Positions 4,916-34,602 are shown, numbered from the stretch's first letter. The stretch is 64,000 bases of DNA from Raillietiella orientalis (GCA_036172245.1 JAYWIR010000111.1:62001-126000); one strand, 5' to 3'. The notes: generated by a model not told the origin, from the sequence alone. Numbers and translations: made by a program.

Positions 4916-4919
4916 CCGG

Positions 4920-7045
4920 TTTCAAAGGGATCACTTATCACTGAAAGAAGGGCCCATCGTTTGGAAGAAGCCTTCGAGGTCCATCCGCATATGTCCCAGT
5001 TGTGGCCATCGGGCAGCTCTTCCTATAAAGATACTGAATGCAGGATGACGTTGCTCTCTTTGAAATTCGGTTCTTTAAAGGCAGCATCGCTCCAAGCCAC
5101 CACGATGCCTCGAGTGCAGCAAATTGCTGCGAAGGCTTGCGGCTGACTGTAGGGCGTCCCATACGAAGAGAAATTAAAGAACGTTTCTTGGCTAGCTGCC
5201 CACCAATAGCCCAATGGCCGTAGGAAATCGTTCCCCTAGGTTTCGAAGGGCAGCACAATCAACAAGAAGATGAAAGAGCGATTCCACACCTGGCGCACTT
5301 AGGATTCACAGCTACCCTTTTCCAGTGAAAGCGGCATGCGCTGCAGGGTAACCCTGAGTGTAACAGTAGCAGCTACAACTCTTGTCACTTAAGGGACAGG
5401 AACCTCGATTCCTTTAATACTGCGGACCTCTTCAGCTAATTCATCAAGATGCCGAACAGCTCGCCCCAAGTTAATAGCCATCGCGCATAAACGCACAGGG
5501 TCGTGGCATCGGCGAGCTCTCCCATGGTCCTTCCGCTGATGAACCTCTCTCGTCCTACTTTGCGGCAGGAAACTTTCCACCTTTGCATCCACCTGCTCTG
5601 AGGTGCCCCCAAAAGGAAAGGCACCACCGTCGCTATGCAGGCCATCTCTGCCTACGTGCCCATATCGGGAAAATCCAGTAGGTACCACACCATGCAGCGT
5701 GCGCAGAGACCGCGTAACAGGCGTATCCACTTCTCTTGGCTCCTCTGGTATATTGCTCCCTCCTCCTGTCGATAGTCTCCTCCAGTCAGGCGGGGGAATT
5801 AACGGGGTAGCAAGCCATCCAGCTGTTTTCCTGCGAGAGCGTTGCCATGTTTGCGAGCACTAGGCCGCATCTGCGAATTATCCGGCCGCGGCACCAACGA
5901 AAAGACGCGAGTCCATCGCACCGAGACACACGGCTGGCGAGGAGGCGGGCCGGAATGCACCAAGGGGTGCTGCACAGCTTCGCTGCGATGGCCATGGTGC
6001 GCCATCGCAGCTGAAGATGGACGCGCTACAGCGTCAAGAGGCTAAGAGAGCCCTACTGACGCGTTGCGTACAAGTATTTCAAAGAGACTCGGGGCCTTCC
6101 CTTGCCCAGAAGGGCCATGCGCTGCAAATACTTCGTTCTCTTCTTTCCTTCTACAGGGACAAACCAAGAAAAATTAGGGGGAGGAGGAGGACGTAACCGA
6201 ACCCGTTCCATACCGCGGCTCATTCCGGCAAGAGAAACTTGCCTTTCAGAAACGGGCCGCACGCTAACTCCACATTCAGAAGACTTTTTGACCACAATTC
6301 TGTTGGACAAACCTGCCCCATCAATACGCGTAGGGTACCTGGCCGTGGCAATCCCCAATCGGATCCTATCAGGCCGTTCTGCCCACGTCGCAACAATTGG
6401 CTCCACCGACGACTTTGCCTTGTTCTATTGCAGTCCGGTCCAGCGGCTAAGCAAATCGAATCAATCCGCGACTCCTGCTGCCGGGGTGGACATGGGCAAT
6501 AAGAGCACAATATCGTCGACATAAGCTGCTACTGCGGGCGTTCCGGGGCACGAGCTCGGCAAAGCAGACTGAGTGGCCCTACACGCACTCAGCACCAACG
6601 GAAGGTGGGTGCTTAAGTGCAGGGGACTCAGACTGTCCACCTTCCGTATGCCGCGCAGCAATGGCCCGCTGTACGCTACTTGACTACTGAAGGAAACGTT
6701 GAATAGAGATTTCCGCCAGCAGGAGCGCAATGCGAAGTGTAGTGAGGCTGGGAAGCCAATGCTACTCAGAAATACTAACGGAAGATCCTGGTTCATCCAA
6801 TTGAATGCCTTGTGGATATCTACCGCGATCGCTACGGCACCCTTTTTGGCCCGGATTTCTTTTCCCTGTCCGGCTGGAGGCCTTAAAGTGGGGCTGCCGA
6901 TCTACTCCATTTTTTTTCTTCTCACACCACTGCAGATGAAACCATGTGCTCGCAAAGAAAAGTTTGGCCTCCATAATTCGCTCGAGAAGAGCGTAGGTCT
7001 GCCACATACCCCAAACGCGACGCCCACAGTCCGGCAAGGAGCTTG
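4920..7045 (-). mobile_element. Degenerate 3' half of an A/C-type ORF2 (RT and C-terminus)
   Basis: Minus-strand KLLAGLWASRLG, PSSCPGTPAVAAYVDD, WGKGRPRVSLK and STPWCIPARLL. Ends in GPSFSDK* near 4927. Many indels. Confidence 0.85.
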
Positions 7046-9518
7046 ACGTGCGAATGTGTTTTTTCAGCGCACGTCTGCGCCTGTTGCGGAGCCTTTATTC
7101 GATTGAGCTTCTGTGTGTGCGGCATCGCCGCTGTCCTATTGCAGCAATGCCTGAGGACACCGAGATGGATGTCGGAGGGGGAGAGGCTTGTTCCTCTCTT
7201 CAGCCCATGGGGGTGGAGGCCACCGCCCCCACGAAGGCGAGGGCAACCGACCCCTTGAAAAAGGGGGCAACCGCGTCCTCGGATTTGTCTTCTGCAACGA
7301 CGGAGACCTGAAGGGCCGTGGCTGCAGCGCCTTCTCCTGCAGCTATAGCACAGAAAAATGCCTACCTTGAATAAGGATACAAGCCGTCCTTGATTTATAA
7401 GGTAGGGAACTTGTTTTTCGGCAAACACGCCCGCAACTCCGAAAAAGAGTTGCAGCGACTGCACGTTAAAGAGGAGGGACTGGAAAATCTTCCCGTGATG
7501 AGTGGGGGTCATCGGGTGGACTTGACTTGCAAAGATGCAAGCCTGGCTCAGCGCCTGCTCAATACACCCATCACGCTGGAAGGCCGAAAGGTTTTCCCGG
7601 TTACGGAGGATCGCTTTATTGCGGCGCACTCCACTAAGGTAACTCTGCGCATAACGAAAACTGGCGTGCAGGAGGAGTTCAAAAAATACGGTACGGTGCA
7701 CGCGCTGTGGACCAAGCCCAACGTCTTCCAAACCTATGGAAGAATGTTCAGTAGCATGAACGCAGCGCGACTGAACGTCCACGAAAACGGTGGGCTACCC
7801 CACGTACTGAACGTTGGCAACGAGATGGTCGAATTCTGGTACGTGGGAGAGCCCAAGTACTGTGGAAACTGCGATGCCACAGGACACCTGAAAAAACGGT
7901 GCCCTTACATCCAGTGCTTTCACTGCGGGGTGAAGGACCACCTTTGTAAAGTGTGTCCACAGCAGGAACCTCCAGCGCAATCTGCTTTGAAAAAACCTGA
8001 AGCCAAACGCTTGGAGAAAGTGAATAAATACAAAGAGGTGAGGGATAGACATAACCAAAAGCCAGAGCCCGAACCCTCTTAGCAGACATCGGTCGAGAAT
8101 ACTCCCGACGACGCTGGCGAGAACAAGTGTTGGCGGATGGCGAAGCCAAAACCCCCAAAAAAAAGAAAACCGAAGGCCTGACAGCGGAACCCGCGACATC
8201 TCCTCTAAATAGGAGACAACTACGCGGATTGCTTCGCGAATGTTCGGTTGCCTTGCAGCGCGTGAGGGTCCCAGAGACTGCGAACGGGGGAGATATCTTT
8301 AGCCTCGTTGCCGACAAAGACGCGACCGCGGAAGGCGAACTCTCTGTGCAAACAGATGGGGAACCGCGCTAAGCGCTCGAAGCAATCGAGTAGGCCGCCT
8401 TCCAACAACCGGCGGAAGATCTCGCGGCCAAAGTCGCCGACCATGAGAACGGCTTGCGAAAGTCCTTGCAAAGGCCGCACGCGAGCAAGGCACCTCCGAC
8501 AGGTGACCGCGATCCGGGTGCCGGAAGTTCGTTCTCCTCTGCGGAGGCACTTCCGAAGAAGACTGGACGGAAGTATAATAATCCGCAGAGGCGCATCCCG
8601 ACGAAGGAGAGGGACGTACCGGCAGCTTAATGGGAAGCCGGCTGCGTGGGAACGAAAGAAGGGATTTTTCCACCCTTTACGACCGAGCAGCTGGTCTCCT
8701 CCATGAAGGAGTGGGAGCAGGTGGGTAATTGCCGTTCCCTTCCACCGATGGGCCTTGCGGAGGAGATAGTGTTGGAGGAGGGGGAGCAGACAGTTCACAA
8801 CCGCTCCCCCCCGCCGTCCGTCCCAGCCGACGAATCGGTGTCCCTGGAATAGAGGGAGCAGGTGCGTGAAACCCGCCCTTTTCCACCGATGCGTCCTGCC
8901 GAGGAATCGGTTCCTATAGAGAAGGGAGTACCGGAGCGCGATGCTCTTGCCCCTCCTCAAGCCGTCCTGCCTGACCAGGTGGAGGGAGCCCCACTGTCGG
9001 TTTCCCGGTAATAACACCTGGGCTCTCCTGACGCCGTCGGATACGCGTGGCCTGCTGGAAAGTGAACCGGCTGCGCGACGACGGCAACAGACGGGACACG
9101 GCCGCCACGCTGCTTGACTTCGACCTGACACACCTGCAGGAGATCCAAATGATCATCGCGGAGAACGCCCAGGAGATCAAGAGGATTGCAGGGGGACGGT
9201 TGCTGTGGCAATGAGGCACCAAATACACCTGAGGCGTCGGGGTTTTCATGAAGCCGGCGGTCGACGCTGCCTTCAAGAGCGTGCGCTTCGACTTAGCCTG
9301 GTCGCGTCGGCCAGCTGATTCTCAGGTGGTCCGACACGATCGACCTCCACGTAACAAACGCCTCGGCTTGCTTGAATGAAAACGTCGGAACAAACCTGTA
9401 CGGCCCCAGCGGTGCGGCCAGGTATCAGGAACGTATACCGTTTCTGGAAAGCCTGAAGCGCGACTGGCTGGTGGAAGCGAACGTGCGTAGGGCTCACTTG
9501 ATTTCGGGAGACTTCAGT
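7046..9518 (+). mobile_element. Family D (A-related) element, 5' part: 5'UTR, ORF1 and N-terminal endonuclease, cut at GDF by element B0
   Basis: ORF1 starts MPEDTEMDVG at 7147 and has knuckles CGNCDATGHLKKRC and CFHCGVKDHLCKVC. Endonuclease runs to RRAHLISGDFS. Confidence 0.85.
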
Positions 9519-11234
9519 CGAGTGGGGACGTGTTTTTTCGTCGCTATTGTGTCTTGGCTGTCTTCTGCTTTATGTTGGTGTCGTGCATTTCGACGACGAT
9601 GTCGTGCCAAAAGGAAGCCACTGAAGTTGGGGGACCAGCGTTTGGATCTGCAACCGTGGAACCGACGTCCGCTTTCTCTTCGTCTTCCACGCCAGCTGCG
9701 AGAACCTTTGCTGACGTTGCTGCTGCCGCAGCTGTCAGAAGGGTACCACTCCAAGAGGCGGAGGTGCAGGCCTACGTAGGCCAGGGCTACAATCCCTCAC
9801 TTTGCTACCAGGTCACTGGATTTCTTTCTGTTCGCGACGGTATTCAGTTCAACGATGAACTGACCAGTGTTGGCGTGCAGGAGGAAGACCTTTTGGCTAT
9901 TATGCCCATCAAAAGCTTTAGATATTTCAAAGTGCGCTGGATAGTCGCGGCTGTTTTGCAACGCTTGCTGCGCAATCCTTTGTTTATCCGTGTTAAGACG
10001 GTCTTCCCATCTAATGGATGAGTCGTTCGTGGACAAGCTTTACGGCATCGAATCGGAAACTTCCGACCGTGAATTGCGGACTGTGTTAGCGAAATTCGCC
10101 ACGGTTTAAGCTCTGTAAAAGGTTGGAAGCACCTCAAGGATATAGCGTTCATCGTCAGCTATAGCGCCGTGGTTCGACTAATTATGCCGGACCTCCGGTT
10201 CCTGCCTTAGAAGCTGTAGGTGAACGATACAGTTGTTCACCTATGGCATGCAGGCAAGCCTCACGTATGTGAGGAATGCGGAGAAGAAGGGCATTATTCA
10301 CAAAAGTGCCCTTCTAATAAATGCCGCTACTGCAAGCAATCTGGACACAAATTAAAGAATTTTCCGGACCTTGCTAGGAAAAAGGCAACCGCAGAGCATC
10401 AACGTACGAAATCCGTCGCGAAAAAAATAAACGAGGCAAAAAAAAAACAGTGCGCACGGGCGAATTCTCGTTACGATGCGAAGTAGAATGCTAACCATCT
10501 GCAAAGGTCCTTACCGTTGAAGCCCCTCGCGCCACACTTAGCGGCAAGGAATCTGCAATAGAAGGGGCGGGAGAGCTCAAAGGTCGACTGCAGAGCTCCT
10601 GTCATCGATGCAGAATCCCGGTTTTAAGCCTAAAGAACAAAGAATCCCAAAAGAAAAAAACCGCTGAATGCTGAATGCTGAATGGCGGTCGCCGTAAAAT
10701 GGAAAGTAAACATTCCACCACCTTGCCCCTTTCAAAGCCGAAGAAGCCCAATGGCCAAAGAAGGAAGGAAGTAGGTTAGGTTAGGTAGGTTAGGTTAGGT
10801 TAGGTTTGGCTACCCTTACTTTTTGAGCTGCAGAGCCACTGGCTCAACAACCCTTGCCCCCAAGCTGCGCACCTCTTCGCGGAAGACTTCAACGTCCGAC
10901 TGTTGTCCGACGATTGCAGCCGCCCCAGGAAGCGCGCGCTGCCCATCGAGAATTGGGCGTCGGTGCACGCCGCCAACTTGATGGTCAGCGAACCTGGAAT
11001 AGAAATATCGCCCGATCAAGTTTTCCTTGATGCAAACCTGCATTACGGTGTGGGTAAAAGAGGAAGATTGTTGACTGGGCTTTCTAAGCTCCACACGTTG
11101 GAGTTTGAACTCCTTCCGCCAGCCAAGGGGCCTCCGTTGCAAAACAGGAGGATGTAGGCGGATTGGCTTAGCCACCCGGAGGCTGCGGAGCATCTCCGTG
11201 AACCCCTCCGAGGCTTCGCCATTCAAGAACTCGG
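9519..11234 (+). mobile_element. Family B copy B0 (old, internally deleted, 3'-interrupted)
   Basis: Starts CGAGTGGGGACGTG like B1-B3. ORF1 is homologous to MSSQLEATEVGG, with knuckle CEECGEEGHYSQKC. Endonuclease piece at 10815-11234. Confidence 0.85.
10772..10804 (+). repeat. (TTAGG)n tract, about 6-7 units
   Basis: taggttaggttaggtaggttaggttaggttagg read directly. Confidence 0.9.
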
Positions 11235-12900
11235 TTCTCACCCGGCTGCGCCGGGGCGTTAATTCTTTCGAATAAAACAAGCGTTGGTGGCTGAACTGGT
11301 GGTCCGGCTACCCACTGGGAAACAAAATTAAGCATGCCGGGTCACCGTTTTGCATTCTAGTACGGTCCACCACGACAGCAGAAGAGGCAAGGACAAAACA
11401 AAAAATTAAAGAAAAAAAAGAAATATATGAAAACAAGATTTGGGAGGCTCGGGAAGGGATCACAGTCTGCTGTGGGGCCGTTACATCATTTGCAGGATGC
11501 CGGCAAGCTTATTTTGGAATTTTGAAAACAGATGGGTCTTTTCTGTGGCCGTCCTCATAAATTCGGCTGCGCACTGGACGGCAACTTTATCCCCCGGTCC
11601 TCTTGTTGCCTTGCTGCATGCACCGACAATCCCGTGAAAGCTGCACAGAGCTGCTAACGAGGCTAATGCCGAAGGGCGAAGCAAACGAAGAGCGATCTAA
11701 CTGGGTCTCTGGGGTTGCCAAAGGGGATACCGATTGGTGCGGCAAAACGGTTCCAAAGGGGTCGAAGAGTCACACAATCCAAAAAGAGGTGAAAGAGGGA
11801 CTCCCATTCTCCCCACCTCGCACAGTTAGGGATCACAGCTCCTCAGGTGCAATGGTGTCGGCGGGCGTTGCAGAGGTGTCCACAATGCAGCAACAGTAGC
11901 GCCGACTCCAGCCATTTTAAGGGGAGGAGTGTAGTGTTCATCAGCACATAAGACGACTTTTACTCTACCTACGGAACATTTAGCAGCTCGCTCTAGCGCA
12001 CGAGTCCAACAGAGGTGGTAATCCGGGCCGCAGTTTAACAAAGAATCCCCGTTTTATATTTCCTGATTTTTTTGTCCGTACCAGAGATTTCAACTTCCCA
12101 TAGCGCCGCAGTGTTGCTGTCCAGATATTCCTTTAGGGAAAATGGCATTGCAGCGAGGAAAGTTCTTCTTGCCCACGCTCGTTTTTGGGGGTTCTTCAGG
12201 ACCTCCCTGAGCGTCAGGCGGTCATTACGGACGTAGAATTGTCTCTGCCCTTCTTGGGTGCGTTGCTAATTGCTCTTTGCCCACGTCTCAACCGTTTCTT
12301 GCAGCCATGCAGGTCCATTAACGCAACGACAGCAGAGCCATCCCGCGTTCTTTTACATCATGTCAGGTAATCTCCGCAGCTGCAACCCGTAGTGACCGAC
12401 TTGGCGGCGACGACGGAGCGCAAGGAAGGATGACAGTCCCACCTTGCATGCAGCCTGCTCGACGAGGAGAATGCGGGCTCGAACCAACTGCTGCTCCAAT
12501 ACTTCGCCACTAGGGAAAGTAGTCGAAACTGGAGTTGGAGCTCCAGCCGCCAAAGCATCAGGAGACCGAAACCGCCGTCCCGACGCTGAGCGTTCAAGTC
12601 CTCAAGACGGACTCGGGCCCTCCCATTACCACACAGGGCAATCCTAAGGAGGTCCTTCGTCCGCTTTTTAGTCTCTCTGATGGATGGAAAAACCAAAAGC
12701 AAAGAACGGAAAAGAAAGACCGCGAAACCCCCCCTCCTCCGTTTAGACGGCCATTAAGCTGGCGGATCCGGATTGCCACTCCTGCCTCTGGGCTCCAGCA
12801 CCGGATTCGGCTAGCCTGCGTACGTCTGCTGTTCGCGCGTAACATTGAGCTTGTAAATACGATCTCTAGTTACGCACGCCTTAGCCAACCAATCTTGTGG
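11235..12900 (-). mobile_element. Family F (C-like) element, 3' end plus deleted ORF2 remnants
   Basis: Terminal AATTAA-CGCCCCGG-CGCAG-CCGGGTG-AGAA on the minus strand at 11235-11264. ORF2 remnants include LRIALCGNGRARVRLEDL and VRRLAESGAGAQRQEWQSGSA. Confidence 0.8.
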
Positions 12901-14974
12901 TGAGCGGACGTGTTTTTCCGTCGTTCCACCTGCGTGGCAAGAGGAGTGTTCTCTATTTGAGTGTTCTGTGCGTTCACATCGTCGGTGTTAGATGGCATCG
13001 CTGCCAGAGGACACTACGATAGAGGTAGGCGTGGGGGAGGCTAGCTTCTCCTCACGGCCTACAGAATCAGGGGCATCTGCACCGGAATCCTCTTCGGCGA
13101 CGCCGAGGACGTGGAGCGCCATGGTTGCCGCGTCTAGCGCGGAAACCATGCCGGAGCAAGCGGCCTACAGGGCCTCTGGATATGAACCATCACTGGTTTA
13201 TAAGGTAGGACCCTTGTTTAATGGTCGCACCTCCCAGGCCTTCAGCAAGGCATCACAGGATCTTCCTGTTCGCGAGGAGGATCTCGACGGCCTTTCCATA
13301 CTCAGCGGGGGCAGGGCGTGGAGTTCGTCAGCAAAGACGTAGCCATAGCAAAGCGCTTGATGAACACATCGCTGAATGTGGATTGCAGGAAGATCTTACC
13401 GGTTTGCATGGATTGCTCGGTAGTTGTCCATCTAACCGGAATTACGAACCGCGTTACGCGCTCTGCAGTGAATGATGAATTAAGAAAGTACGGCGAGGTA
13501 CACGCGCTCTGGCCAAAGCCAACCATCTTTAATGGCTTTAATAGTTATTTCAAAGGGCGGGCAGCAGCGCGTGTCACTGTAAATAAGGTTGCTGGGTTAA
13601 CCCGCAAACTGGAGGTCGCGAAGGAATCCGTCGACCTCTGGCACGTGGGAAAACATCGCTATTGTAACTACTGCAATGCAGTAGGGCACTTGTGCAAGCG
13701 GTGCCCGAACATTGTATGCCACCTATGCGGAAAGAAGAAGCACGTTCGACGCGTGTGATCTAAGCGCCCCATCCCGGTGCCCGCTGCTGCCAAAAAGGCA
13801 CAGGAAAGAAGCAGAAAGCTGGTCGAAAGGCGAAAAGTTGAAAATGGCCGCTCCCATCTGCCAGCCTCCCTTCCTACCACACAGGCGTTCGGAGGAAAAA
13901 CTCCCAAAGACGCAGGAGTGGAGGATGGCTGGCAGCTGGTTAAGGCCAGGAAAGAAAAGTAGATTCTGAGGAAACAAAAGTCGGAAAAGAAAACTGCCCG
14001 CAAAATTGAAAAAGCCGTTCCGCTTTCAAAAAAACTTCGCGAGTGCTCCGTGGCATCGGAACCCTTAGCCGTTCCTGTGGAGGTCGCCTGCGGAAATGTT
14101 CAGCGAACAACTGATGGAGTCGCGATTGAAAATCGAGTGGACGAGCTTACTCTAGGCTTAGAGTGTGAGACGCGCGACTCGTGCTCCGAAAGAGAGGACG
14201 CCGCGTTCGATAAGGTCGCGGAGGAAACCGCGGCGACGTTCGCCGGCAACGAAGACGCGGCCTTCGAGAAGGCCTCGCAGGAGCTCGCAGCAACGCTTGC
14301 CAAGCGCGAAACCCCGTTTTGCAAGGGCGTCCGCAGCCCGGCTCCGAAGAAAATGTCTGCCGCAGGTGAGTCCGACTAGGAGGCCGGAAACTCATCCTCC
14401 TCCGCGGAGGCACCACCTCGAAAAGCAGGACGTAAGTTCCGAAAGCTCAAGGAGTGCCCTCTTGTTTCGAAGAAAGAAGAAAAACAAGACGACGACTGCA
14501 GCGTGGCACCCCGGAGGGGAATCTCTCACGCTCGGAAGCCGGCGCACAGGCTTCGCCCACTGAGGAAGGTGAGCAGGGTAACGAAGCCAACCCTGCATGC
14601 GACGAACCAAAAAAGCCCGCCCCTATGGAGGAGGGCGATCAGGTAGGCGCGACCACACCTTCGGGCGATCCGCTTGACACGCCGACACCAATGGAGGAAG
14701 GGGATCAGGTGCTCGACGCACCAACCCGTCCGCCTCCAAGCGCCCCGCCTCAACAGGTGGCGTACGCCGCACTGCCACTTTCGCAGGATTAACACCTGGG
14801 CTCGCCTGTCGCCGTCAAAAACGCGTAGCCTGTTGTTGTGTCAACGGGCTGCGCGACGACGGCAACAGACGAGATACGGCCTGCGTGAGTTCGACCTGTC
14901 CCTGCTGTAGGAGTTCCACGTGAACACCGCGGCAGACGTCGAGGAGAACGAGACGATCGCGGGGTGTCGGCTGT
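12901..14974 (+). mobile_element. Family A copy A0: 5'UTR, ORF1 and start of endonuclease, interrupted by E
   Basis: Starts TGAGCGGACGTGTTTTT. ORF1 begins MASLPEDTTIEVGVGEA at 12992, with knuckles CNYCNAVGHLCKRC and CHLCGKKKHVRRV* and PMEEG repeats. Confidence 0.88.
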
Positions 14975-17900
14975 TTATCGCCCGGGTGCGCCGGGGCGTT
15001 TATTACAAACTATACGGGAACAAAGTTCCCGGACAAAGGACATAGAGTAACGAAGAGGGTGCGAACCCCGACACGCAGGTCGGTAAGACGTAAGTCCGGA
15101 ACGGGAGGGAGGGGACCACAAATACACCGTATAGGAAAAATAAAAATAAACATATGCAGGGCAGGGGACAGGGATCTTTGGTACGGCCGTTCCTTTCTTT
15201 CAGAACCGGCGATGGATGCCGGGGATCTCTCTCCTCACGCTCTCTGGTAGAAGGGTCCACACGGCAGCCGACGACATGCTGGCGCTGGCTAAGCCGGTGG
15301 GCTGACGAAGGATGGCCATCTTTTCCACTTGTTGGTGGGCTTTGTCGATGGCACGAATGCAACACACGGTTACAACAACAGCACCAAAGAGCAGGCCGCC
15401 TGGCGTGAAGAAGCGTCGCATCAAATTTCTCGCGCTTTCCCCCTGGTGCAGGAGAGCTGAGGCCAGCCTCCGCCACAGTCCTAGGAGGGCACCGCAGTCC
15501 AAGAGCAGGTGCGGGAGCTTTTCCACTTCTCGCACCGCTCACAGTTTGGGGAGACAACTCCCCCGATAACAAGGTTCGTGCGCTGGTTGGAGCGAAAACC
15601 CCAATGCAACAGCATAATCACGTCCTGCTTCCACGGAAGGGGGAACACAGAAGTGTTCAAATACGAGGGAGGAACCACAAGTTCTTCGGAGGGCACCCTC
15701 ACGTGTTCGCTTAACCGAAGGAGTCCCTTCGGAACGTGGCGAGGCGTGACGTCTTCCGCCAGCTCGCATGTCCTCCAGACGAAGATAGGTCTCGTTGTTC
15801 CTGCGATGGTGCAGGCGACCTCCCATCTCGCCCGTTCGCAGCGGTCATCTTTTACCCTGAGGGCTGACAGTGCGTTAACGAGGTGGGTGACGGCCAGGCG
15901 GGTCGACTTCTCCTGGCTGTTGCACACCTCATCCACCATGCAGTACGGGGAGAGGAGAGCGCAACGGAGTTCCAGGACGGAAACATTCTGGTGGTTTGCA
16001 CAGCCATGCAACGGTTCCTGCCGTCAGGCTTGAAAGTTCGTTGGGCGGCAGGAGATCCATTCCTGGGCTTCCAGGAGCCGGTAGAGAGGTTTCAAGAGGA
16101 AAGCGAAGCTTCTCGTGGCGCGCTCCGCGTACGGCCGCAGCGAGAGAAGTCCATCGCTGCCTGTGCAGCGCAGCAGAAGCAGACGCGCGGGTGCGCACCA
16201 AGGAGTGGAACAAAGGTTGGCGCACAGAACCAACATCCGAAGCTGCACCTGCAGCTCGATTCTCTCCAGAGGCAGGATGCCTAAGCCAGCTCCCCGACGC
16301 GGAGGCGCCAAGCCTTTGAGGCGGATCCTGGACCTCGCATGTCCCCACAAAGCGTTCTTCAACAGGCTGTGCGCCTGAAGCTTGGCCGAGTAGGGGAGCG
16401 GGGAAACAAAAAGCAGAAGACGCAAGAGGGGGGAAACGAAGGTGTTCCATATCGTGGCCCGCTCCGGCAGGACGAATCTGCCATGGTGTATCGGGCTCAG
16501 GACATTCGAAGCCTTCCGAAGGCATTCCGTCCACACTTCCACTGGGCTGATGTTCCCCAGCGGAACGCCCAGATATTGCATGGAGGAAGCGGTCGGGATC
16601 CCCAGGCGGATCCAGTCGGACTGCCCCTCCCACGAAGCACCAATAGGTACGACCACTCTCTTGCTCCGGTTTACGCTCATGCCCGCTCTCCGCCGAATCA
16701 GCTCGAAGAAATCCTCGAGACTGGACGCCGGGGTGGTGATGGGAAAGAGGAGAAGCAATCGTCAGCTCAGGCCGCCACAGACGACGTTCCTGGACAAGAG
16801 CTCGGCAGGTTGGCCACCGTCAGCCTGTACGCCCTCAGCACCAACTCAAAGAAGATGCTGGAGAGCCACGGGCTTAAGCTGTCGCTCTGCCTGATGCCTC
16901 GACGAACCGGCACGCCGTACACGTGGCAGCCGCTAAAAGAGATGGAAATGCGCGCGTGGCGCCAACAAGCGCGCAAATGTGCCACGAGTTGCACCGGGAG
17001 ACCGACACGTTCCAAGAGCTCCAGCAGGAGATCCTGATTTACGCAATCGAACTCCTTCCGGAGATCGACCGCTACCGCGAAGGCACACGGCGCTTTCCCA
17101 GGTCGAATGCAGCGACTCCTAGCCTCGGCAACCGCAGATGCGGTTGCCTGGCTGTCGTGCGCTACGCAACGTTGCAGCTCGAGCCACGTACGCGCCAATC
17201 ACAGATTCGCCTGTATGGACCGCCTAAGAACAGCGTGAGACTGCTCCGGACATACCACGAATCCAGCGATCCTGCCTAGGCGCGCTACTCACAGCCTGGA
17301 GAACAACTTGACGTTCGCATTCACCAAGGTAATGGGACGCCAGTTGCTTAAACGGCGCATGTCTCCGCTTTCCGGCAAGAGACGCTCCCTTGCTAAGCGA
17401 AACGAGGCCGGTACATTGCCCGTCACTTGCTTCCGCAAAGGAAGCCTCAGCACCAGAAAGATGAGTTCCGCCGCGAAGCACTGGAAGAAGTCCACAGGCA
17501 GATCATCCTCACCTGTCCCCTTACACTTCTTGAAGCCCGCTATAGCGGAAGACATTTCTTCCGCCGTGAAGGGCAAGTGAAGTGTGGTGCGTTCTTCCTC
17601 GTCGACCGCCGGGGAATCCGCCTGCAGGAGCAGCTCCGAGAGAAGGCGTTCCGTCGTCTCCCTAGCATACAACGAGGAATAGTAGCGCTTTACGAGGCAG
17701 CAAACTTTAGCCGCGCCCGAGCACTCCAGGCCCTAGTCGTCGAGCAGACAAGCTGCTCCCGACTGCCAGACCTGACGCTCGGCCTTGGCCTTGTACTCCG
17801 CAAGGTACCGTACGTCCGAGCATCGGGAGAATTGGCGGGCCTGCAGAAACTCTCTGCAGTTGGCTGCGCCTTCTTGGAAGCCACGGGGAAGCACGCGCAA

Positions 17901-20123
17901 GGGTAACCGGCTGCAGAACTCGCGGACCAATCTTTTCAGATCGTCCCAGTACACGAGCTCTCCAACGGCAAAGGTCTGGAGATGCTGGCGGAGGTGCTCC
18001 GCAGCCACTGGATTTCTCAACCAGTCGGCCGGCAACCTCCAGACGTGCGTCGAAGGGCCCTTGCCAGGAGGGAGTAGCTCAAACTCCAGCCTGTAGTGGT
18101 CGGAAAGCTTGGACGGCTCGGGACCTCTTCGACACACCGGGCAATGCAGTTGATCGTCGAGGAACAGATGGTCCGGCCAAGCACGCATCCCGGGATCGTC
18201 GGCCAGCAAATTCGAGGCGTCCACCGACGCGCACATCTCGTTCACCAGCCGTTTCTCCCGGCGACTGTGAGACTCCTCCGATAGCGCGTGGACGTTGAAG
18301 TCCCCGGCTTCGAGGTGAGCCACGTCGGGGCCGGAGTTGCTGAGACAGCGGTCGCGCAGCCTCTCGAAAAACTCCAGTTTCTCGGTGTGACGCGCGGAGC
18401 CGCTTGGCGCGTACACGTTCGTGACGACAAGGTTGATCGATTCGGACCACTTGAGAACAAGTTGGCCCACACGACCTTCCTTGTCGAAACAAACGCTCCG
18501 CACTGCACTTGCCACACTGCGCTGGACAAGGAATGCGACTCCGCAGGTATTCTGAGAGCCTGACATCCAATGGAGCGTCCCGCCTGCGCAAACTTGCAGA
18601 TGGGCCGCTTGCTGCTCGGAGAGTGCGTGAATCTCCTTCAGCATGGCCAGATCGATGTCGCGCAAGACGTTGGCAACCAATCGCCTCTTCTCGTTGTCCT
18701 GCAGCCCGTTGACCTTCCAACAGGCCACTCGGACGCGACGGGAAGAAGCGAGACCGCTTATTGCTGCTACGGACATGGAGGTGCGTTCCTCGCCCCGTCC
18801 GGCGAGGCATCCGCCGGGAGCACGGCGGATGACGTAGCGCAAGCGCTTCCTGTCCTCGCCGAGCCGCTCACGGCCGGCTCGGTCGAGTCGAGGACCATTG
18901 CCTATGGCTCCGAGGAGCATCGGGAACCGTTCCCGACATCAGGCTCTTGCCTGGCAAGTTTTAGCTTGCGCGCAGCCCTGGCCTTTACCGGGGCTTGAAG
19001 AGCCTTAGCGCTGCCCCCGGACTATTCCTCGGAGTCCAAATTCCGCGCGCGTGCCGCGCGTTTCGTCTGCCTCTTTTTTTGCTGGCAGCCCGGAGCTGGT
19101 CCAGCACTCTTAGAGGGTGCCTTCGTCGCCGATCCCCCTTCCTGGGTCATGGCATCGGCGGCTCTTCTCTCGCAGCGGGTGTTTGCGACGGCGCGCCCGG
19201 CGGCAGCAGTGGCTTTTCCTTGCGCCTTCCTTGGCGTGTGGGGCTGCCTCTTCAGCCCGCCTACCTTTCTGATCGGGAAGTGGGAAGGATCGCGCGGTTT
19301 GCTCTCCTTCTTTTCCCGACGAAGGTCCAGGCATCATCACCGCCTTCCACTTTGCCTCGGTTGGGCGCGAGGGCTTCCAAGATCCTTCCCAACCTTTCCA
19401 ATGCCTCGGATACGGCGATGGAAGCCAGTGTCTCCTTCGTCACGTCTGCCTTCTGCACCTCCTTACAGGAAGGTGTGAGCAGAGTGGCGGGATTCTCGTG
19501 GGTTGCGCGAGGCTTTTCAGCCTTTGCTGGCATTCGGCCCGCCGTGGCCGGCTTTCCTGTCGCGGGCAAAGGGGCGCGCGACCCCTTTCTCGACGCTACG
19601 GCGGACTTCCCGGGCGTGCCACCGCTATTTTACTATGTAGCGAGAGCGGACGCAAGCGGCGGTTTTGCAGTCTGCCCCAGGTTTTTTCCAGACTGCTTTG
19701 CCCGGGGCTTGTTTTTAGCAGCTTGGAGAAGCTTTTTGCCCTTTTGTGCGGGCATTTGAGAAGCATTGCTCCCAAACACGCCCGCGCAATCGGACTTTGT
19801 GCTTGTCCGCTGCGAAACCTCGTTCGCGCCGGATTTCTTCCCCGAAGACGGAGCGGATGGAGTCGGCGCGAACGGCGATGTTGCAAGGAGGTTACTTGTC
19901 CTTCTCTTTAGTTTTAGATCGGCGCACTCCTTAATCAAGTTACTGAGCAGCTTACAGTATCGGCAACTGCGTGTTGGGCACTTCCATGGACGGTGACCCT
20001 TCTTCCCGCAGTTGTCGGAAGCTGGGGTTTGCCCGGCAAACCGAAGATAGACGACAAAGTCACCGAGGAGGATCTGCGGAAGCATGAGCTTCCGATCGTC
20101 CATAGTGACGCGCGCCGTCGCGA
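14975..20123 (-). mobile_element. Family E element (nearly complete ORF2, 3' part of ORF1)
   Basis: 3' hairpin terminus at 14975-15004. ORF2 motifs are CWKVNG, TNVYAP, AGDFN, SDH, DLRKEFD and RQSDSLSP, with C-terminal CERC..HLLLDC. Confidence 0.9.
15200..18776 (-). pseudogene. Family E ORF2 (APE endonuclease-reverse transcriptase)
   Basis: ORF pieces 17733-18920, 17289-17672, 16767-17198, 16024-16758, 15481-16011 and 15200-15535 join into one EN-RT-CCHC protein with frameshifts and stops. Confidence 0.88.
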
Positions 20124-23068
20124 TTCACACCCGCATGTGCCGGGGCATTTATTTCATTGAAATAAAATTACATAGAAATGTCGCGTGGCGAACCCTAAGG
20201 TACACCACTCCAAAACATTTTGCTGGTTACCGGCTCCATGCCGGAGAGGTCCTTCCGATGCGCGGAGATGGAAAATAAAGAAAAACAAAAAGAAACAAAA
20301 AGTTCAAATGTGGGGGGGAACAAATGTTGTAGGGGTGGGAGGGCAGGGAAGGGAAGACGGTGCGCTTGGAAAGGTCCTCTAGATCCTACTCAGGATCCGC
20401 ACAAGCTGAGTCCTTTCAGCACCCAAGTGGCGCCACTTGCGTACACTGCGCGCGGAAAGGCGAGTCCAGTGTAAGGCGTTGCCGGTTGGCTGACGCCTTC
20501 TTCTGGTGGCGTTCCAAGCCGCCACTATTCCTCTGATGCAACAGAGGACTGCTACACTAGCCAACAGGGACAAGGCGTCACCACAGAAGAGGCGCATTAA
20601 AACGTCCTTTGGGCCGCATCCGCGCAAGTACAGGATCGCCGCGAGACGATCACACAAAGGGCGGAGGGCGCTACACTCAAGGAGAAGGTGGGGAATGTTT
20701 CTTTTTCCCCAGTCCGGTCACAATTAGGATCCACAGACCCCCGGGTTTTGTGGTGCAGGCGTGCTATGAATGAAAATCCCCTGAGAACCACAAGAAACGC
20801 CACATCCTGCCATTTCAGGGGGAGGGATGCACTGTTCCAGGACGCTGTGGGCCACTTTATCTCTTTCGGAGATAGTCCGAGTAGCTCGCCCCAGCGTCGA
20901 ATTCCGTTGAGCGAAACACTCGGCGTCGCAGCGTCAGCTAGCTGCCGAGATGTCCACGCCTTTATCGATTGTGTCCTGCCGCCTATAGTGCAGGACACGG
21001 TCCATTTCCCCTGCTCGCTACTGTCCCTGGCATTCACAAAGAAGGGCAGCACTGGGGCGAGGGGCGTTATCAAGGCCCCCAGAAGCTTGTCGTGGGACTG
21101 CACGATCTCCTGCAGCTTCCTGCGGGCGTGCCTTCTCATACAAGTGTTCCTTGTGCCAGCCGGAACGTGGATCTTTACCCAGGTGGAGACTGACTCGTAC
21201 AACCAGGCGGAGTAGTTCCCTGGGAGGCAGGAGATCCAGGCGTTCTCCCGAACAGCAACGAAGATGCGTCGCAGCATAGAGCCACAGTATGGTCTTCTGC
21301 AGACGCGTGCAGATGGAAACGACAAACGTCCGCCGATTCCGCAGGCTCGTTGAGCTAGCAGGCGTGCTGGAACGCACCAAGTCGTGTCCCACAATTCGGC
21401 CGCGAGGGCGAGAGTCCTGAATCCAAGTTGCAGTTCCATGCGCTCCAGCGTAAGTACGCCAAGTCCACCGTCCTTACGTGGAGCGCACAAGTCTTTGAGC
21501 CTCACACGGGACCTCCCTTTGCCCCAAAGACTGTCCTCAGAAGGCCCGCTGCTCGTTTCCGAATAAAATAAGGAAAGGGGCAAAGAAAAAGTAGGGGGCG
21601 AAGGAGGGGAACCGCAAGCGCGTTCCACACCGCGGCCCGTTCCGGGAAGTAAAACCCTCCTTGCAGGAACGGACCGATCGCCGTATCGACTTTTTGGAGG
21701 CAGCTGTACCACGCTTCCGCAGGGGAAAAGTCCCCCGACGGCACACCGAGGTACTTAATGCAGCTCACCGTGAGGATCCCCAGACGGACCCAGTCCTGCT
21801 GGCCTGCCCACGTCGCTCCAACTGGCAACACTGACGACTTCGCCCTGTTAAGCTGTAATCAGGCCCCACGGCTAAGCAGGTCGAAGAAATCGCCGAACGC
21901 CTTTGCCGGGGTGGACATAGGTAAGAGGAGAAGAAGATCGTCGACATAGGTTGCTACGGCTGGCGTACCGGGGCACGAGCTCGGCAAGGGGGCCAAAGTC
22001 ACCTTGTACGCTCTCAGCACCAACACAGCGTAGGTGCTAAAAAGCAGGGAGCTGAGTCTGTCGCCCTGCCTTATGCCCCGCCGCACCGGCACGCCATACA
22101 CCTTTTGTCTAGTAAAAGTAATCGAGATTATCGCAATCCGCCAGCAAGAGCGCAGGTAAGTAATCAAGGAGGGAGGGAAGCCCATGCGACCCAGCAGCTC
22201 CAAGAGGAGTTCCTGGTCAACACAGTCGAATGCCTTATGGAGGTTTACTGCGATCGCTAGGGCCCCTTTCCCGCATGAGGGTCCTTACCCTGTCCCAGTT
22301 TCGGCCTTAAAGTAGGGTTGCAAATTTTCCCTTTCCCTTCGTTCTTACTCCGCTGCGCGTGCATCCATGTGCTCGCGAAGATGAGGTTGTCCTCCATACT
22401 TCGCCCGGCAACAGCGTAAGTGTGCTCTTGGCTAATTATGGAATTGGACAGCTGCCCCAATCGCGACGCTCACAGCCCGGCAACCAACTTGGCGTCCGTG
22501 TTCACAATCGTGATCGGACGCCAGTTGCAAAGTTTCCTGAGGTCTCCTCCCTTCGGGAGGAGCCTCACCCTGGCTGACCGAAACGAGGCGGGAACATCGC
22601 CTTCGTCTCGGATTCGCCTTGTCAACTAGAGCACCAGTTGATACAGCTCTTCCGCGAAACTCTGAAAGAACTCCGCAAGAAAGCCGTCATCCCCTGCCGA
22701 CTTACGCCTCTTGAGCCTTTTGATACCGGCAAAAATATCAACGGTCGTGAAAGGCTCATCTAGGTTTTCTCTCTCCTCCTCCTCTATCGCCATGGAACCA
22801 CTCATGAGCAATCGCCGCGAGGCGTCTTGTTCGGATGGTGTTTTGGCGTAAACGGAGGAATAAAAACACCGCACGAGATTGCGTACCGCTGACGGGGACG
22901 AACGTTCCCGGACCAGGTCATTCAGCATGCTGGCTGACCCGGATTGCCAGGCTTGACGATCAGCTGCGGCGCGGTATTCGGCCAGGCGACGGACATTGGG
23001 GTTCCTCTCGTGAAGACGCGCGTGCAAATACGCGCGTTCTTTGCGAGCCCCGTCGCCGAATCCCTTGG
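20124..23068 (-). mobile_element. Family C element, 3' half (RT, C-terminus, 3'UTR); host of the A array
   Basis: 3' terminus AATAAA-TGCCCCGG..GCGGGTG at 20124-20153. ORF2 has RQGDRLS and PAVATYVDD, and is cut at PKGFGDG by A1. Confidence 0.88.
23054..23068 (+). repeat. 15-bp target-site duplication of family A (CGCCGAATCCCTTGG), copy 1
   Basis: Same 15-mer at 34634-34648 and, with one mismatch, at 40291-40305. Each copy lies immediately before an A 5' end. Confidence 0.9.
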
Positions 23069-23159
23069 CGAGTAGACGTGTGTTTCCCTCGCTCCCGAGT
23101 GAGTCGACAGGAAGCGGTTTTTTCTATTGTTGTTTGGTGTGGAACATCGTTGGTGTCCG

Positions 23160-24914
23160 ATGGCAGCGATGCCTGAGGACACCACGATGAATATAGGTGT
23201 GGGGGAGGCTTGCCCACCCCCACAGCCTACAGAATCAGGGGCGTCCGCCCCGGAATCGCCCTCGCCGCTCAAGGCGAGGAGCTGGAGCGCCATGGTGGCC
23301 GCGCCGAGCGCGGAAACCATGGCCGAGATGGCGGCCTACCGGGCAGCTGGGTAAAAGCCCAGCTTGGTTTACCAGGTAGGCAATCTCTTTGACGGGCGAA
23401 CTGCACGCGCTTTTTCGAAAGCGCTGCAGAACGCCAACGTGTTAGAAAAGGACCTTGACGGTCTATCCGTGCTAAGCGGGGGTCAGCGCGTTGAGGTTGT
23501 CTGCAAGGACATCACCTTGGCGCAAAGCTTGTTAACCACCCCGCTGAACGTGGACGGACGCAAGATCCTACCAGTCACGATGGACCGCTCCGTAGTGGTC
23601 CATCTGACAGGGATCACCAGCCGCATGACGCGGTCTGCGGTTGGTGATCAGTTAAGAAAGCACGGGGATGTTCCCGCGCTTTGGCCAAAGGCCACAATCT
23701 TCGATGGCTACGATAGCCTTTTCGGAGGGCAGGCCGCCGCGCGCGTGACGGTGAACGAGAGTGGGCTTCCCCACAAACTAGAGGTCAATGGCGAAGTCGT
23801 AGACCTCTGGTACGTGGGGAAACCCTGCTTTTGTGGCTACTGCAATGCAGTAGGACACTTGCGCAAGCGGTGCCCGAACATTGTGTGCCACTTATGCGGG
23901 GAGAAGGGCCACGTACGCCGCGTATGCCCTAAACGCCCCACTCCGGTGCCGCCTGCTGCAAAAAAAGCACAGGCAAAACGCAGTAAACTGGTCGAAAGAC
24001 CAAAAAGAGATACTGGCCGGCAGCAGCCGCTAGCCCCTGTTCCTCCCACACAGGCGTCGGAAGAAAAACCCTCCGAAGACGCAGGAGTCCAAGACGGCTG
24101 GCAGCTGGTCAAGGCCAGGAAGGAGAAAAAGGTGCACCCCGCGGAACCCGCGAAAGCGGTAAAAAAGACAGCCGGCAAGGCGAAAAAACCTGGGCCGCGC
24201 TCTAAGACCATGCGGGAATGTACGGTAGCACTGGAGCGCATAGCCGTTCCCGAGATTGCCACCCGGGGCGACGAGCCTTCCCTCGCCGTGTCCGCCGCGC
24301 CCGAGGTTCGCGACGACGAACCCTCTGTTTACACAGAGGGTGAGCCGCGCGACGCGCCGGTCGACACTGCGGACGCCGCGTTCGCAAAGGCGGCGGAGGA
24401 GCTCGCGGCCACGCTGGCGGAGCGTGAGAACCCCTCACGCAAGGCCGTGCGAAGGCCGGCTCCCGCGAAAAAGGCCCCCACAGGTTAGTCGGACCTGGGG
24501 GCCGGAAGTGCATCCTCCTCCTCGGAGGCACCCCCCAGGAAGTCGGGACGCAAGTCCCAGAAACCCAGGAGGCGCCTCCCCTCCACCAGCGAGGAGGAGA
24601 AGCAGGAAGGTAGCGGTAGCGTGGGAATCCCGGAGGGGGAACTCCCACGCGCGGAAGCCGTCGAGCCGGCCACCCCCATGGAGGAGGGTGAGCAGGGGGG
24701 CGAAGTCCTCCCTGCAGTCGCCGAGCCTGAACAGCCCGCCCCCATGGAGGAGGGCCAACAGGTAGGCGCCACCCCACTTAAGGGTGACCCCCTCGACGCG
24801 CCGTTACCCATGGAGGAGGGGGACCAGGTGCACGCAGCGCCTGACCCTCCTCCTCCACCTAGCGTCCCGCCCCAACAGGTGGCGGACGCCGCATCGCCAT
24901 CTTCCCAGGAATAA
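23160..24914 (+). pseudogene. A1 ORF1, zinc-knuckle nucleic-acid-binding protein (~584 codons, two premature stops)
   Basis: One reading frame with stops at 23352-23354 and 24486-24488. Knuckles CGYCNAVGHLRKRC and CHLCGEKGHVRRVC. Confidence 0.9.
24671..24830 (+). repeat. Three degenerate PMEEG(E/Q/D)Q peptide repeats in the A ORF1 C-terminus
   Basis: CCCATGGAGGAGGG recurs at a spacing of ~66-69 nt. Also seen in A0, A2, A3 and D. Confidence 0.8.
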
Positions 24915-25380
24915 CACCTGGGCTCGCCAGTCGCCGTCGGATTCGCGCCGCCTGGTGGAACGTCAACGGGCTGCGCGACGACGGTAACAGGCGAGATACG
25001 GCCGACACCCTGCGTGAGCTCGACCTGGCCCTGCTGCAGGAGATCCACGTGATCACCGCGGCAGACGCCCAAGAGATCGAGACGATCGCGGGGGTCGGCT
25101 GTATTGGCGGTGCGGCCTCTGCAACACCTGCGGGGTCGCGTTCTTCGTGAAGCCGGCCATCGACGCGGCCGTGAAGGGCGTGCGCTTCGATGACGACGGT
25201 CGGGTCGGTCAGATGATTCTCAGCTGGTCCGACTCGATCGAATTGATCGTCACGAATGTGTACGCCCCCAGCGGTAAACAGGGATACAGCGACCGTACCA
25301 GGCTGCTGGATTCCCTGAAGCGCGACTGGCTGGCGGACACGAACGTGCGGAAGGCTCACCTGATAGCGGGAGATTTCAAT
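24911..25380 (+). pseudogene. A1 ORF2, N-terminal endonuclease up to GDFN
   Basis: WNVNG, LLQEIH, TNVYAP and LIAGDFN, with a 1-nt frameshift near 25095. Confidence 0.9.
25373..25380 (+). repeat. 8-bp target-site duplication of B1 (ATTTCAAT), left copy
   Basis: Repeated at 31291-31298; single copy at the empty site in A2 (36945-36952). Confidence 0.92.
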
Positions 25381-25459
25381 CGAGTGCGGACGTGTTTTTC
25401 TTCGCTCTCGTCTCCGTGCTTTCATCCGCTTCATCTTGGCGTCGTACATTTTGACGACG

Positions 25460-27383
25460 ATGTCGTCCCAACTTGAAGCTACTGAAGTTGGAGGAACAGC
25501 ATCCGGATCTGCAATCGCGGAACCGACGGCCGCCTCCACTTCGTCTTTCTCGCCAATGGAGAGAAGTTTTGCTGACGTTGCTGCCACAGCAGCCGTCAAA
25601 GGGAAACCACTCGACGAGTCGGAGTTGCGGGCATACGTAGCCCAAGGCTATAGACCTGCTCTCCGATATAAGGTGAGTGGTTTTCTTTCTGCGCGCGACG
25701 GGAATCCGTTCAACGATGAACTGACCCGTGTTGGCGTGCGGGAGGAGGACCTTCTCGCCATTATGCCCGTAAAAGACATGGGCTATTTCAAGGTGCGTTG
25801 CAAAGACGCTGCACTTGTGCAACGCTTGCTGCGCACCCCGTTGTCGATCCGTGGCCAGAAGGTCTTCCCGGCCGCCATGGACGACTTATTTTTGGTGGAG
25901 ATTTTCGACATCGAGTCGGAAATCTCCGATACTGATATACGGAACGCGTTGGCGAAATTCGCCACGGTCCATGCGCTGTGGAGGGTGCGTAGCAACCTCA
26001 AGGACTTCCCGTCCATACACAGCGGAGTCGCTGGAGTCCGGCTTACAATGCCGGACCGCTGTCTGCTGCCCACCAAACTACAGGTGAAAGACACGGTCGT
26101 TCACCTGTGGTTCGTGGGCAAAGTAAAAACGTGCGAGCAATGCGGGAAGGAGGGGCATTGTTTGGATAAATGCCCCTCTGGAAAATGCCGTTATTGCAAA
26201 CTATCCGGGCACCAATTGAAAAATTGCCCGGATCTTTTGCGAAAAAAGGCAGCCGCGGAGCTCCATTTTAAAAAACAAAGCGCGGATAAAAAGAAAAAAT
26301 CTGCGAAAACCCTGGAGACCCCACGGCAGAAATTCGGTAAAAACGCGAGGCGGAATGTCGCCCCAAAGCAGCAGGAAACCTCGCACGCGAAGCCCTGCGC
26401 ACCCCCTCTCGCGGCAGGGGAGCCGCAAAAGAAAGGGTGCGGGGAATCCGGGGCAATGGTAAGTCACCCTAGGCGCAATAGCTGTCCTTCCCAAGCACGC
26501 CCGGCTCTCTCGGAGTTCGAGCAACCGGCGGGGACGCCAATGGACAACGGCGGTAAGGACACTTCCAGTACCGTCAGATCCATCCCTTCACCTCCTGCAG
26601 TGGCTGAGAAGCCCAAATCGGGTAAGAAGGTTTGTGCCGTGTCGACTTCGAAAGTCGGCAAAAAAAAAATCCGCGTCGCGATCCAACACCGCGAAAGCGG
26701 AGAAAAATCTCACGCCGTCGCAGTCGGAGAGCAAGCTCTGGACTGGCGCGGATGCCATGCCAACGGAGGGATTAAAAGCCCTTCCGAAAGCAGCGTCCAT
26801 GACGAGCGTGTCGGAGTCATCGAAAGTGCTCCCGTCCAAAGACGCGGATGGCTTCAAAGATGGCAATGGAGCACAATCTCCATTTACGGCGCCACGCAAA
26901 GTGAGGAACCGTAATGAAGTAAAGAAGACTTCAGCAAAGGTCCCTCGGGCAACTGCGCGTGAGCACGCTGAAAACGCGCGCGCAGGGAAAGCAGCCGTCA
27001 CCAAAAGCGATGCTCTGGAGACGGAAAAAGACAACAGGACAGCTGTCAATCCAGCAGAACCTGTCACTGCTTCGCGGAAGGCCGAAACCCGATCGAACAT
27101 GCGCCGGTCGGACTCCGAAATGGATGCCGTTCCGATCACCGAGACGAGGACAACTCGTTCGAAAGCGTGTGCGTGCCGATCAAAAGTAGGCAGCCAGGCA
27201 ACGCTCGCCGCGAAGCAACGCGAAGTCTCCACGAAACCCGACGGGGTTCAGCCTGGCGTGGAGGCATTACATGCATGCAGCACGACAGAGGACGGTGGCG
27301 ACCGTCCCCTCCAGCCAGTCGTGCTGCTCGCCGTCTGCTCGCCGGATAAAGAGAGCAAAAAGCCGCCACCTTCCCAGCAGTAA
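25460..27383 (+). pseudogene. B1 ORF1 (two zinc knuckles), frameshift in the A-run at ~26660
   Basis: Knuckles CEQCGKEGHCLDKC and CRYCKLSGHQLKNC. ORFs 25436-26914 and 26634-27383 join. Confidence 0.9.
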
Positions 27384-30977: not shown

Positions 30978-31298
30978 TCATTGCCCTACCCTCCATAAAC
31001 TAAATTTGTATTTTCTTTTTACACCCGCGTCCCCATAGGCTCCGGAACATTTGAGGTGCTCATCGTTTAAATCCCCGTGAGTACGGAGCCTAACCAAAAA
31101 CCCTTTTCCCTTCCCTCCAGTTTTTGATTTTTGTTTGTTTCCCCTCATTCCCCCCACGCTGCGAGCGGTTTGTTTACCAGGCCTGCGTGGCGGTAATTTT
31201 TCTATGTTCTCTGTCGTTCTGTTGGTTGGGGACATTGTCCCTGACCAGTTTATTATTATTAATAAACGCCCCGGCGTGACCGGGTGATAAATTTCAAT

Positions 31299-34427: not shown

Positions 34428-34602
34428 TCCCGTCCCTGCCCTCCAACTTCTTTTTGTTTGTTTCTTTTTTATTTTACTTTTTGTCTCATCCCCATCCCCC
34501 TTCGCTGTCGGGGAGTGCCACGCCGGGCTGCGTCCCGGTGTCCCGACAGGTCCTGTGTTTACGGCCGTGGTGGGGCCTTGTACCACGCATGTAAAGTTTA
34601 TC

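Follow-up and report, generated by a model that had tools for sequence, protein, structure and literature searches.

A 64,000-nucleotide stretch of Raillietiella orientalis DNA (GCA_036172245.1 JAYWIR010000111.1:62001-126000; hereafter the window, from which all counts, sites and events below are drawn) carries a nested cluster of related long interspersed nuclear elements (LINEs). We propose that this cluster was probably built largely by sequence-specific integration, with at least two lineages inserting into conserved coding motifs of sister LINEs. Judging by their coding content, the elements are retrotransposons that lack long terminal repeats (non-LTR), of the apurinic/apyrimidinic endonuclease (APE) type and belong to the L1 group, with a second open reading frame (ORF2) that encodes APE followed by a reverse transcriptase (RT). 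Junctions, target duplications, empty sites, nest closures and the independence of events can be read from the window directly. It shows one hallmark of a target-specific LINE, in that independent copies agree in nucleotide position and orientation within a repeated target, of which empty copies are also present. Elements are referred to by letter (Table 1), the two lineages with a recurrent site being B and A/AC.

All four B-type 5′ ends follow a 9-mer coding for part of the GDF(N/S) motif of APE, in sense orientation. Three of them lie in diverged A-type hosts, D (where the 9-mer reads ACTTCAGTC), AC1 and AC3, and the fourth follows the 3′ end of B2 plus the same 9-mer. Both flanks are present for B1, which is bracketed by a 9-bp duplication (ATTTCAATC) and beyond which the AC1 host continues in frame; the same GDFN site is empty in AC2 and in the A0 remainder (S15). 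The claim in an earlier reading of this DNA (the original prediction) that B hits A and D is thereby borne out, as re-use in sense of the GDFN codons of A-type hosts through independent events.

It is quite improbable that segmental duplication or gene conversion instead spread the shared junctions from one cluster member to another. This explanation draws on a BLAST comparison of 24393-31299 with 41771-48680, which returns one 94% hit running across the A/B junction, and on D/B0 versus AC1/B1, where divergence is equal on both sides (76.5% and 76.2%). However, the hosts AC1 and AC3 share 86.5% identity over their last 600 bp and the inserts B1 and B2 share 95-96%, so that the jump falls precisely on the junction, and the nearest copy to AC1 is AC2 (95.4%), which has an empty site. 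Furthermore, the ratio of nonsynonymous to synonymous substitution rates (Ka/Ks) is 0.29 for D versus AC1 ORF1 and 0.37 for B0 versus B1 ORF1, at synonymous divergences (dS) of 0.9-1.5, as opposed to 0.56-0.79 for pairs of young, dead B copies. These low values place most of the divergence of D and B0 in living lineages under purifying selection, rather than after duplication of a dead composite. Tandem AC units also have very different ORF1s. Divergence of hosts and inserts, together with Ka/Ks, argues that the B insertions were independent events.

The second recurrent site is that of the AC lineage. The 5′ end of AC1 follows GCCGAATCC in C(−), and alignment with the empty copies in AC1 and AC2 identifies GCCGAATCC as the last host bases, antisense to the HPGFGEG codons (ORF2 amino acids (aa) 134-136 after GDFN). 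All four AC-type 5′ ends (A0, AC1, AC2 and AC3) follow the host 9-mer at these codons in antisense, two of them in the hosts F and C and two in tandem. The AC1/AC2 boundary carries GCCGAATCC and the AC2/AC3 boundary GTCGAATCC, in each case with the 3′ end ..GGCAAC on one side and the 5′ start CTTGGCGAG on the other. Since the ORF1s of AC1-3 differ by dS 0.8-1.1, we regard these units as separate insertions into one regenerated site and not as a local duplication. A0 belongs to a different lineage from AC1 (dS 1.16, Ka/Ks 0.24) and adjoins F(−) at codons homologous to PGFGEG, with F aligning from aa 137 on. The PGFGEG site is thus occupied in F and C and empty in AC1, AC2, B1 and B2. With different hosts and different inserts, re-use of the AC site reads as the product of independent events.

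Clusters of this kind could also arise through Zepp-style nesting without sequence specificity, where elements are steered to the cluster, for example by chromatin, land at random positions and recur at a site by chance. Zepp is described as targeting existing copies and building arrays (PMC8226300), and the single-copy sites of D, E, F and C as well as the off-site end of S16 (see below) fit random landing. We nevertheless consider random landing very unlikely, since three independent B insertions and two independent AC insertions share nucleotide and orientation in hosts of about 5.65 kb, for which our arithmetic gives about 1 in 11,000 per extra coincidence of nucleotide and strand, and since four tandem junctions retain the exact 9-mer.

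Under sequence-specific integration, L1-group elements with a putative ORF1 zinc knuckle, an APE- and RT-encoding ORF2, a conserved 3′ hairpin, a short ..AA tail and a conserved 5′ start would nick their target with the endonuclease and then integrate by target-primed reverse transcription. B-type elements would enter in sense at the APE GDFN codons (target ..GGGAG^ATTTCAATC^TCCGTC..) and produce a 9-bp duplication, and AC-type elements would enter in antisense at the PGFGEG codons between APE and RT and duplicate the 9-bp GCCGAATCC. On the bottom strand, nicking is predicted at GATTGAAAT^CTCCC by B-type elements and at GGATTCGGC^GA by AC-type elements. Because the duplication regenerates the site, repeated hits would build head-to-tail arrays with the 9-mer between units. 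We infer that the element's own endonuclease is the source of specificity, along with the position of the nick on each strand and the order of events.

The GDFN regions of the B-type elements and E themselves (27839-27860, 45222-45243 and 18294-18305) read GGGGACTTCAAC GTCC.., versus GGAGATTTCAAT CTCC.. in the hosts that were hit, and the region in B-type elements reads GACTTCAAC GTCCGCC. These sites are empty in three of three elements, a tiny sample, and may reflect self-immunity.

Each junction in the chain is the left-hand boundary of one element in a nest packed like Russian dolls (S1 > D > B0 > F > A0 > E > C > AC1-3 > B1-3), and three right-hand closures lie inside the window: B1 in AC1, E in A0 and C in E. 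For E in A0, an 8-bp duplication (TCGGCTGT) is found at 14967-74 and 51931-38, the second copy being preceded by the 5′ end of minus-strand G and followed by APE sequence. A0 before the site has identities of 0.87, 0.84, 0.82 and 0.77 to AC1, AC2, AC3 and D, and S15 after the site has 0.85, 0.82, 0.79 and 0.72, in the same ranking. For C in E, the ORF1 of G (..ECLH) joined to that of E (IATARVT...) aligns unbroken to B1 ORF1 aa 189-346 (score 207), whereas in a control in which G is read on into its actual neighbour the alignment ends at aa 206 (score 51). The 31 kb at 20124-51282 are an insertion complex within E ORF1, bounded on the left by the 3′ end of C(−). On the right, 50847-51282 holds an ORF2 N-terminus of A/C-like type (81% nucleotide identity to AC1 versus 70% to B1, over only 78-91 nucleotides (nt)), consistent with a 5′-truncated C. 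B3 ends abruptly at 50846, and on the simplest reading a single later deletion would have taken what is missing from B3 and AC3 together with the middle of C. At 50846/50847, where B3 (+) adjoins the C remnant (−), both are broken within their endonuclease N-terminal regions at nearly mirror-image positions, in what looks like a deletion between inverted homologous arms.

These closures also bear on whether the junctions represent chimeric cDNAs, formed when RT, having reached the 5′ end of one LINE RNA, switched to a site inside a second one; 3′-truncated elements with full-length 5′ ends behind them would result. Several plus-strand elements (D, B0, A0 and AC3) do appear as 5′ parts with the 5′ end of the next element after them, the families are mosaic (AC1 versus AC2 has dS 0.82 in ORF1 and 0.055 in ORF2), and the in-frame S15/S16 junction could be a template jump. 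However, at B1, E and C the host resumes on the far side with a duplicated target, which is the trace of an insertion and not of a template jump, and the mixed orientations along the chain are unlike a single cDNA. This origin of the chain is therefore highly improbable.

The original prediction had interpreted eight element-into-element junctions as a cyclic network in which each family from A to F has its own fixed site, with B hitting A, A hitting F and F hitting B. All eight junctions are present, at most 5 nt from the coordinates first proposed (Table 1), and each sets a true 5′ or 3′ terminus of an APE- and RT-encoding non-LTR element against an internal break in another. The separation of families A and C does not stand, since A supplies the 5′ half and C the 3′ half of a single family, AC: the first (A1, 23064-25381) matches AC2 (34644-40291) up to position 36953, and 31291-34643 matches AC2 from 36945 onward (93%). 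A1 and 31300-34634 make up the single element AC1, which is split by B1 with the ORF2 frame kept across the split. With A and C belonging to one family, "A hits C" amounts to an element targeting itself or a sibling; the ORF2 of F is likewise A/C-like. A fixed site for each family is upheld as re-use for two lineages, B and A/AC, while the insertions of F in B0, E in A0, C in E and D in S1 are still single observations, as had been conceded at the outset.

The complete network is accordingly unlikely. Beyond the fixed sites of two lineages, it can point to two-way traffic, with B0, E and B1-3 in A-type hosts and F and C in the B-type hosts B0 and E, and to recurring breaks at ORF2 aa 110/111 (B0 and S15) and aa 198 (S16 and S18). 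Nonetheless, with A and C merged, F A/C-like and four of the insertions seen singly, the cycle hangs on the one F-in-B0 junction; C and AC are close in RT, yet occupy different sites; and in a LINE-only cluster every insertion must hit a LINE. More speculatively than sequence-specific nesting itself, it is possible that the cluster houses a guild of sibling autonomous LINEs, whose endonucleases are specific for one another's most constrained codons, including the catalytic GDFN and their own antisense strand, and have been kept so across dS of about 1. Such elements would be mutual parasites in a self-renewing, possibly centromeric cluster, each lineage having its own site and the A and B clades perhaps targeting one another.

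Several observations weigh against sequence-specific integration as the builder of the cluster. Independent events are few, three for B and two for AC plus tandem copies, as all come from 64 kb. For S1, D, B0 and F, no right half was found in the window. Two A-like 5′ ends lie elsewhere, D at DAK/LLAGLW (aa ~325) and S17 at aa 198, and C, although A/C-like in RT, sits in E ORF1 with about 5 nt duplicated. The in-frame S15/S16 junction is not accounted for by this model. Among B-type 3′ ends, two of three are followed by the full 9-mer and the third, that of S16 at 55417, is off, with five of nine target letters (ATTTC) and then AT-rich DNA. This DNA is not recognisable as APE coding (0 of 7 comparisons beat shuffles), and we rejected the S16 3′ flank as the remainder of D, a GDFN site, on the same seven alignments.

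Break points recur at two other places: B0 and S15 end at the ORF2 linker, aa 110/111 (11231 and 52585/52586), and S16 and S18 both begin at ..(F/Y)YSSLY, aa 198 (52586 and 62159). These could reflect a third specificity in which 261 bp of the target are deleted, a mosaic with a naturally short linker, or a jump between templates.

Related retroelements fill approximately 4.2-55.4 kb and the stretch from 59.6 kb to the window end, with a GC content of 54-62%. Long frames encode a reverse transcriptase (PF00078, E down to 2.3e-23) and an endonuclease (PF03372, Exo_endo_phos, E = 4.2e-09) according to Pfam. The ORF1 zf-CCHC matches are weak (19.7 and 18.8 bits, under the 20.8 cut-off), with CxxC..H..C strings visible in the translations. 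The nearest solved proteins are human LINE-1 ORF2p, with E = 1.2e-43 in the RT region, and the L1 endonuclease, with E = 1e-4 in the APE region. The elements share a 5′ start, ..GAGYGGACGTGTTTTTC (8 matches in the window versus 0.65 expected, all on the + strand), and a 3′ end, AATAAACGCCCCGG..CCGGGTGnnAA (9 matches versus 0.44 expected), eight matches of the latter being element ends and the ninth, at 9353, not. A poly(A) tail is absent: in all eight 3′ ends a conserved hairpin is followed by a closing ..CCGGGTGnnAA(C). Compensatory change is seen in 0 of 7 pairs of the short hairpin into which the 3′ motif folds, and we therefore treat it as a conserved motif only. The remaining parts of the window, 55423-59650 and 1 to ~4100/4200, have no LINE similarity and no Pfam family above cut-off; they are AT-richer (GC 40-49%) and represent either cluster edges or other inserted DNA.

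A search of 5.8 billion proteins returned one relative at 70% identity, the remaining matches having at most 35% and none being named Zepp, and a protein atlas gave generic RT clusters only. A metagenome scan with the 3′ motif yielded 74 loci, none of them related by blastn, and a scan of GTDB genomes with AC1 ORF2 gave 58 pattern matches and no relatives. In the one public run, from a relative (X1), 0.20 of the words are present, and 437 of its contigs map to 6800-26799 at 80% likeness, 11 of them at ≥99%. Joints among those listed are cross-mappings between homologous families. One contig of 3755 nt is 99% like B1 and has its first base in A-type flank, 21 nt upstream of the 9-mer; we left it out as support, because it may be the same locus in the relative.

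Target-specific LINEs are known for rDNA, small nuclear RNA genes, telomeres, microsatellites and a DNA transposon, Tx1L for instance targeting the DNA transposon Tx1D. Zepp-like LINEs pile into their own clusters by a mechanism that, to our knowledge, is not understood; such clusters typically number one on each chromosome and lie at the centromere. A poly(A) or A-rich 3′ tail is typical of L1 proper and of Zepp, and human L1 combines a poly(A) tail with a loose TTTT/A nick preference. The elements described here would share with human LINE-1 the mechanism class, target-primed reverse transcription with target-site duplications, but differ in having a conserved 3′ hairpin plus tail, fixed 8-9-bp duplications and defined sites.

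In arrangement, the cluster resembles those of the L1 LINEs Zepp and ZeppL in green algae (Chlorella/Coccomyxa and Chlamydomonas), which are described as nested and GC-rich, with one per chromosome (PMC3446292, PMC8226300). In both cases L1-group elements form GC-rich clusters by insertion into existing copies, nested and in tandem. Zepp arrays are described as consisting mostly of 5′-truncated 3′ ends (PMC8226300), whereas eight full-length 5′ ends are present here; also unlike Zepp, poly(A) is absent and several diverged lineages share one cluster. The available Zepp/ZeppL passages, including those of two Chlamydomonas papers, make no mention of fixed nucleotide sites in coding motifs. The Tx1 and R1 clades include target-specific LINEs of the APE type, with transposons named among the targets (PMC4640811). 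Like these, the present elements encode APE and use one position and orientation in a multicopy target, a likeness of insertion pattern. Their targets differ, being conserved codons of sister autonomous LINEs, including their own antisense strand, and a single cluster houses two or more specificities. No description of sister LINE lineages that target one another's conserved codons emerged from the literature searched, a limited library. In the present cluster the nesting is legible to the nucleotide, and the fixed duplications restore the site and lead to tandem arrays. If true genome-wide, this would explain in concrete terms, at the level of sequence, how LINE clusters assemble themselves, and would offer a natural example of transposons specialised on the conserved coding motifs of other transposons, and a set of APE endonucleases with distinct, readable specificities.

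Table 1 Elements of the cluster and the junctions between them, in window coordinates.
Feature	Position	Strand	Position in original prediction	Description
S1	4934-7044	−		A/C-like 3′ part, RT ..DAK/LLAGLW to ORF2 end; hosts D; 54% aa identity to AC1 ORF2 (tblastn)
D	7045-9519	+		A-like, 5′ end to GDF(S) codons; last 9 nt ACTTCAGTC, the B target
B0	9520-11233	+		old B-type, 5′ end to ..FAIQEL (ORF2 linker, aa 110); internal deletion near (TAGGT)n
F	11234-12894	−		A/C-like, 3′ end to PGFGEG-equivalent codons (aa 137); internal deletion aa 183-616
A0, 5′ part	12895-14974	+		5′ end to GCRL in APE
E, 3′ part	14975-20123	−		B-like, ORF1 IATARVT to 3′ end
C, 3′ part	20124-23063	−		A/C-like, aa 136 (PGFG) to 3′ end; last 9 nt on + strand GCCGAATCC, the AC target
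AC1	23064-34634	+		full-length A/C, interrupted by B1; ORF2 open except one stop
B1	25382-31290	+		full-length B; ATTTCAATC flanks at 25373-25381 and 31291-31299
AC2	34644-40291	+		full-length, uninterrupted; preceded by GCCGAATCC (34635-34643)
AC3, 5′ part	40301-42763	+		preceded by GTCGAATCC (40292-40300); cut at GDFN by B2
B2	42764-48671	+		full-length B, in AC3
B3	48681-50846	+		in tandem after B2 with ATTTCAATC (48672-48680) between; stops in APE region
Probable 5′-truncated C remnant	50847-51282	−		ORF1 tail and ORF2 N-terminus ..CWNVNGLRDDGKRRDV; adjoins B3 break
E, 5′ part (G)	51283-51930	−		5′ end and ORF1 to ..ECLH; rejoins E ORF1
A0 remainder (S15)	51931-52585	+		second TCGGCTGT copy to ORF2 linker aa 111; GDFN site empty
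S16/B4	52586-55417	+		B-like 3′ part, ..KRYYCSLY (aa 198) to 3′ end; then ATTTC and AT-rich non-LINE DNA
S17	59655-62160	−		A-like, 5′ end to ORF2 aa 161; 5′ end adjoins S18
S18	62159-64000	+		A/C-like, from aa 198
Junction, D in S1	~7045		7045	D 5′ start; S1(−) broken at DAK/LLAGLW
Junction, B0 in D	9520		9518	B0 start, after ACTTCAGTC in D
Junction, F(−) in B0	11232-11235		11234	F 3′ end, adjoining B0 ..FAIQEL
Junction, A0 in F(−)	12895-12898		12900	A0 5′ start
Junction, E(−) in A0	14975		14974	E 3′ end, after A0 ..GCRL
Junction, C(−) in E	20124		20123	C 3′ end; E ORF1 at IATARVT
Junction, AC1 in C(−)	23064		23068	AC1 start
Junction, B1 in AC1	25382		25380	B1 start

Within these elements, the left boundary of S16 may lie anywhere within 52570-52586, and both sites of AC2 are empty (GDFN, 36945-36953; PGFGEG, 37355-37370). 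S17 was considered as a remainder of C or F and rejected, because the PGFGEG site lies within it and its likeness to AC2 is only 67%. An APE fragment at 4179-4930 (S0, +) is strongly diverged, with about 40% aa identity to both clades, and its GDFN-equivalent site is empty. It adjoins the ORF2 C-terminus of S1(−), and since S1 lacks its 3′ untranslated region the S0/S1 junction is not canonical. Short repeats comprise a tandem (TAGGT)7 at 10772-10806, at the internal deletion of B0, a 57-bp repeat of 2.5 copies in the ORF1 tail of AC3 (41605-41748) and a 17-bp duplication in the A0 remainder (52010-52044).

The AC1/AC2 mosaic contrasts ORF1 (23355-24485 versus 34935-36059, 76% aa identity) with the far less diverged ORF2 (31299-33533 versus 36953-39186) and suggests module exchange between subfamilies. 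Apart from B1, AC1 ORF2 (31299-34424) is nearly intact, with frames of 745 aa and 296 aa and one stop between them, and AC1 was therefore probably young when hit.

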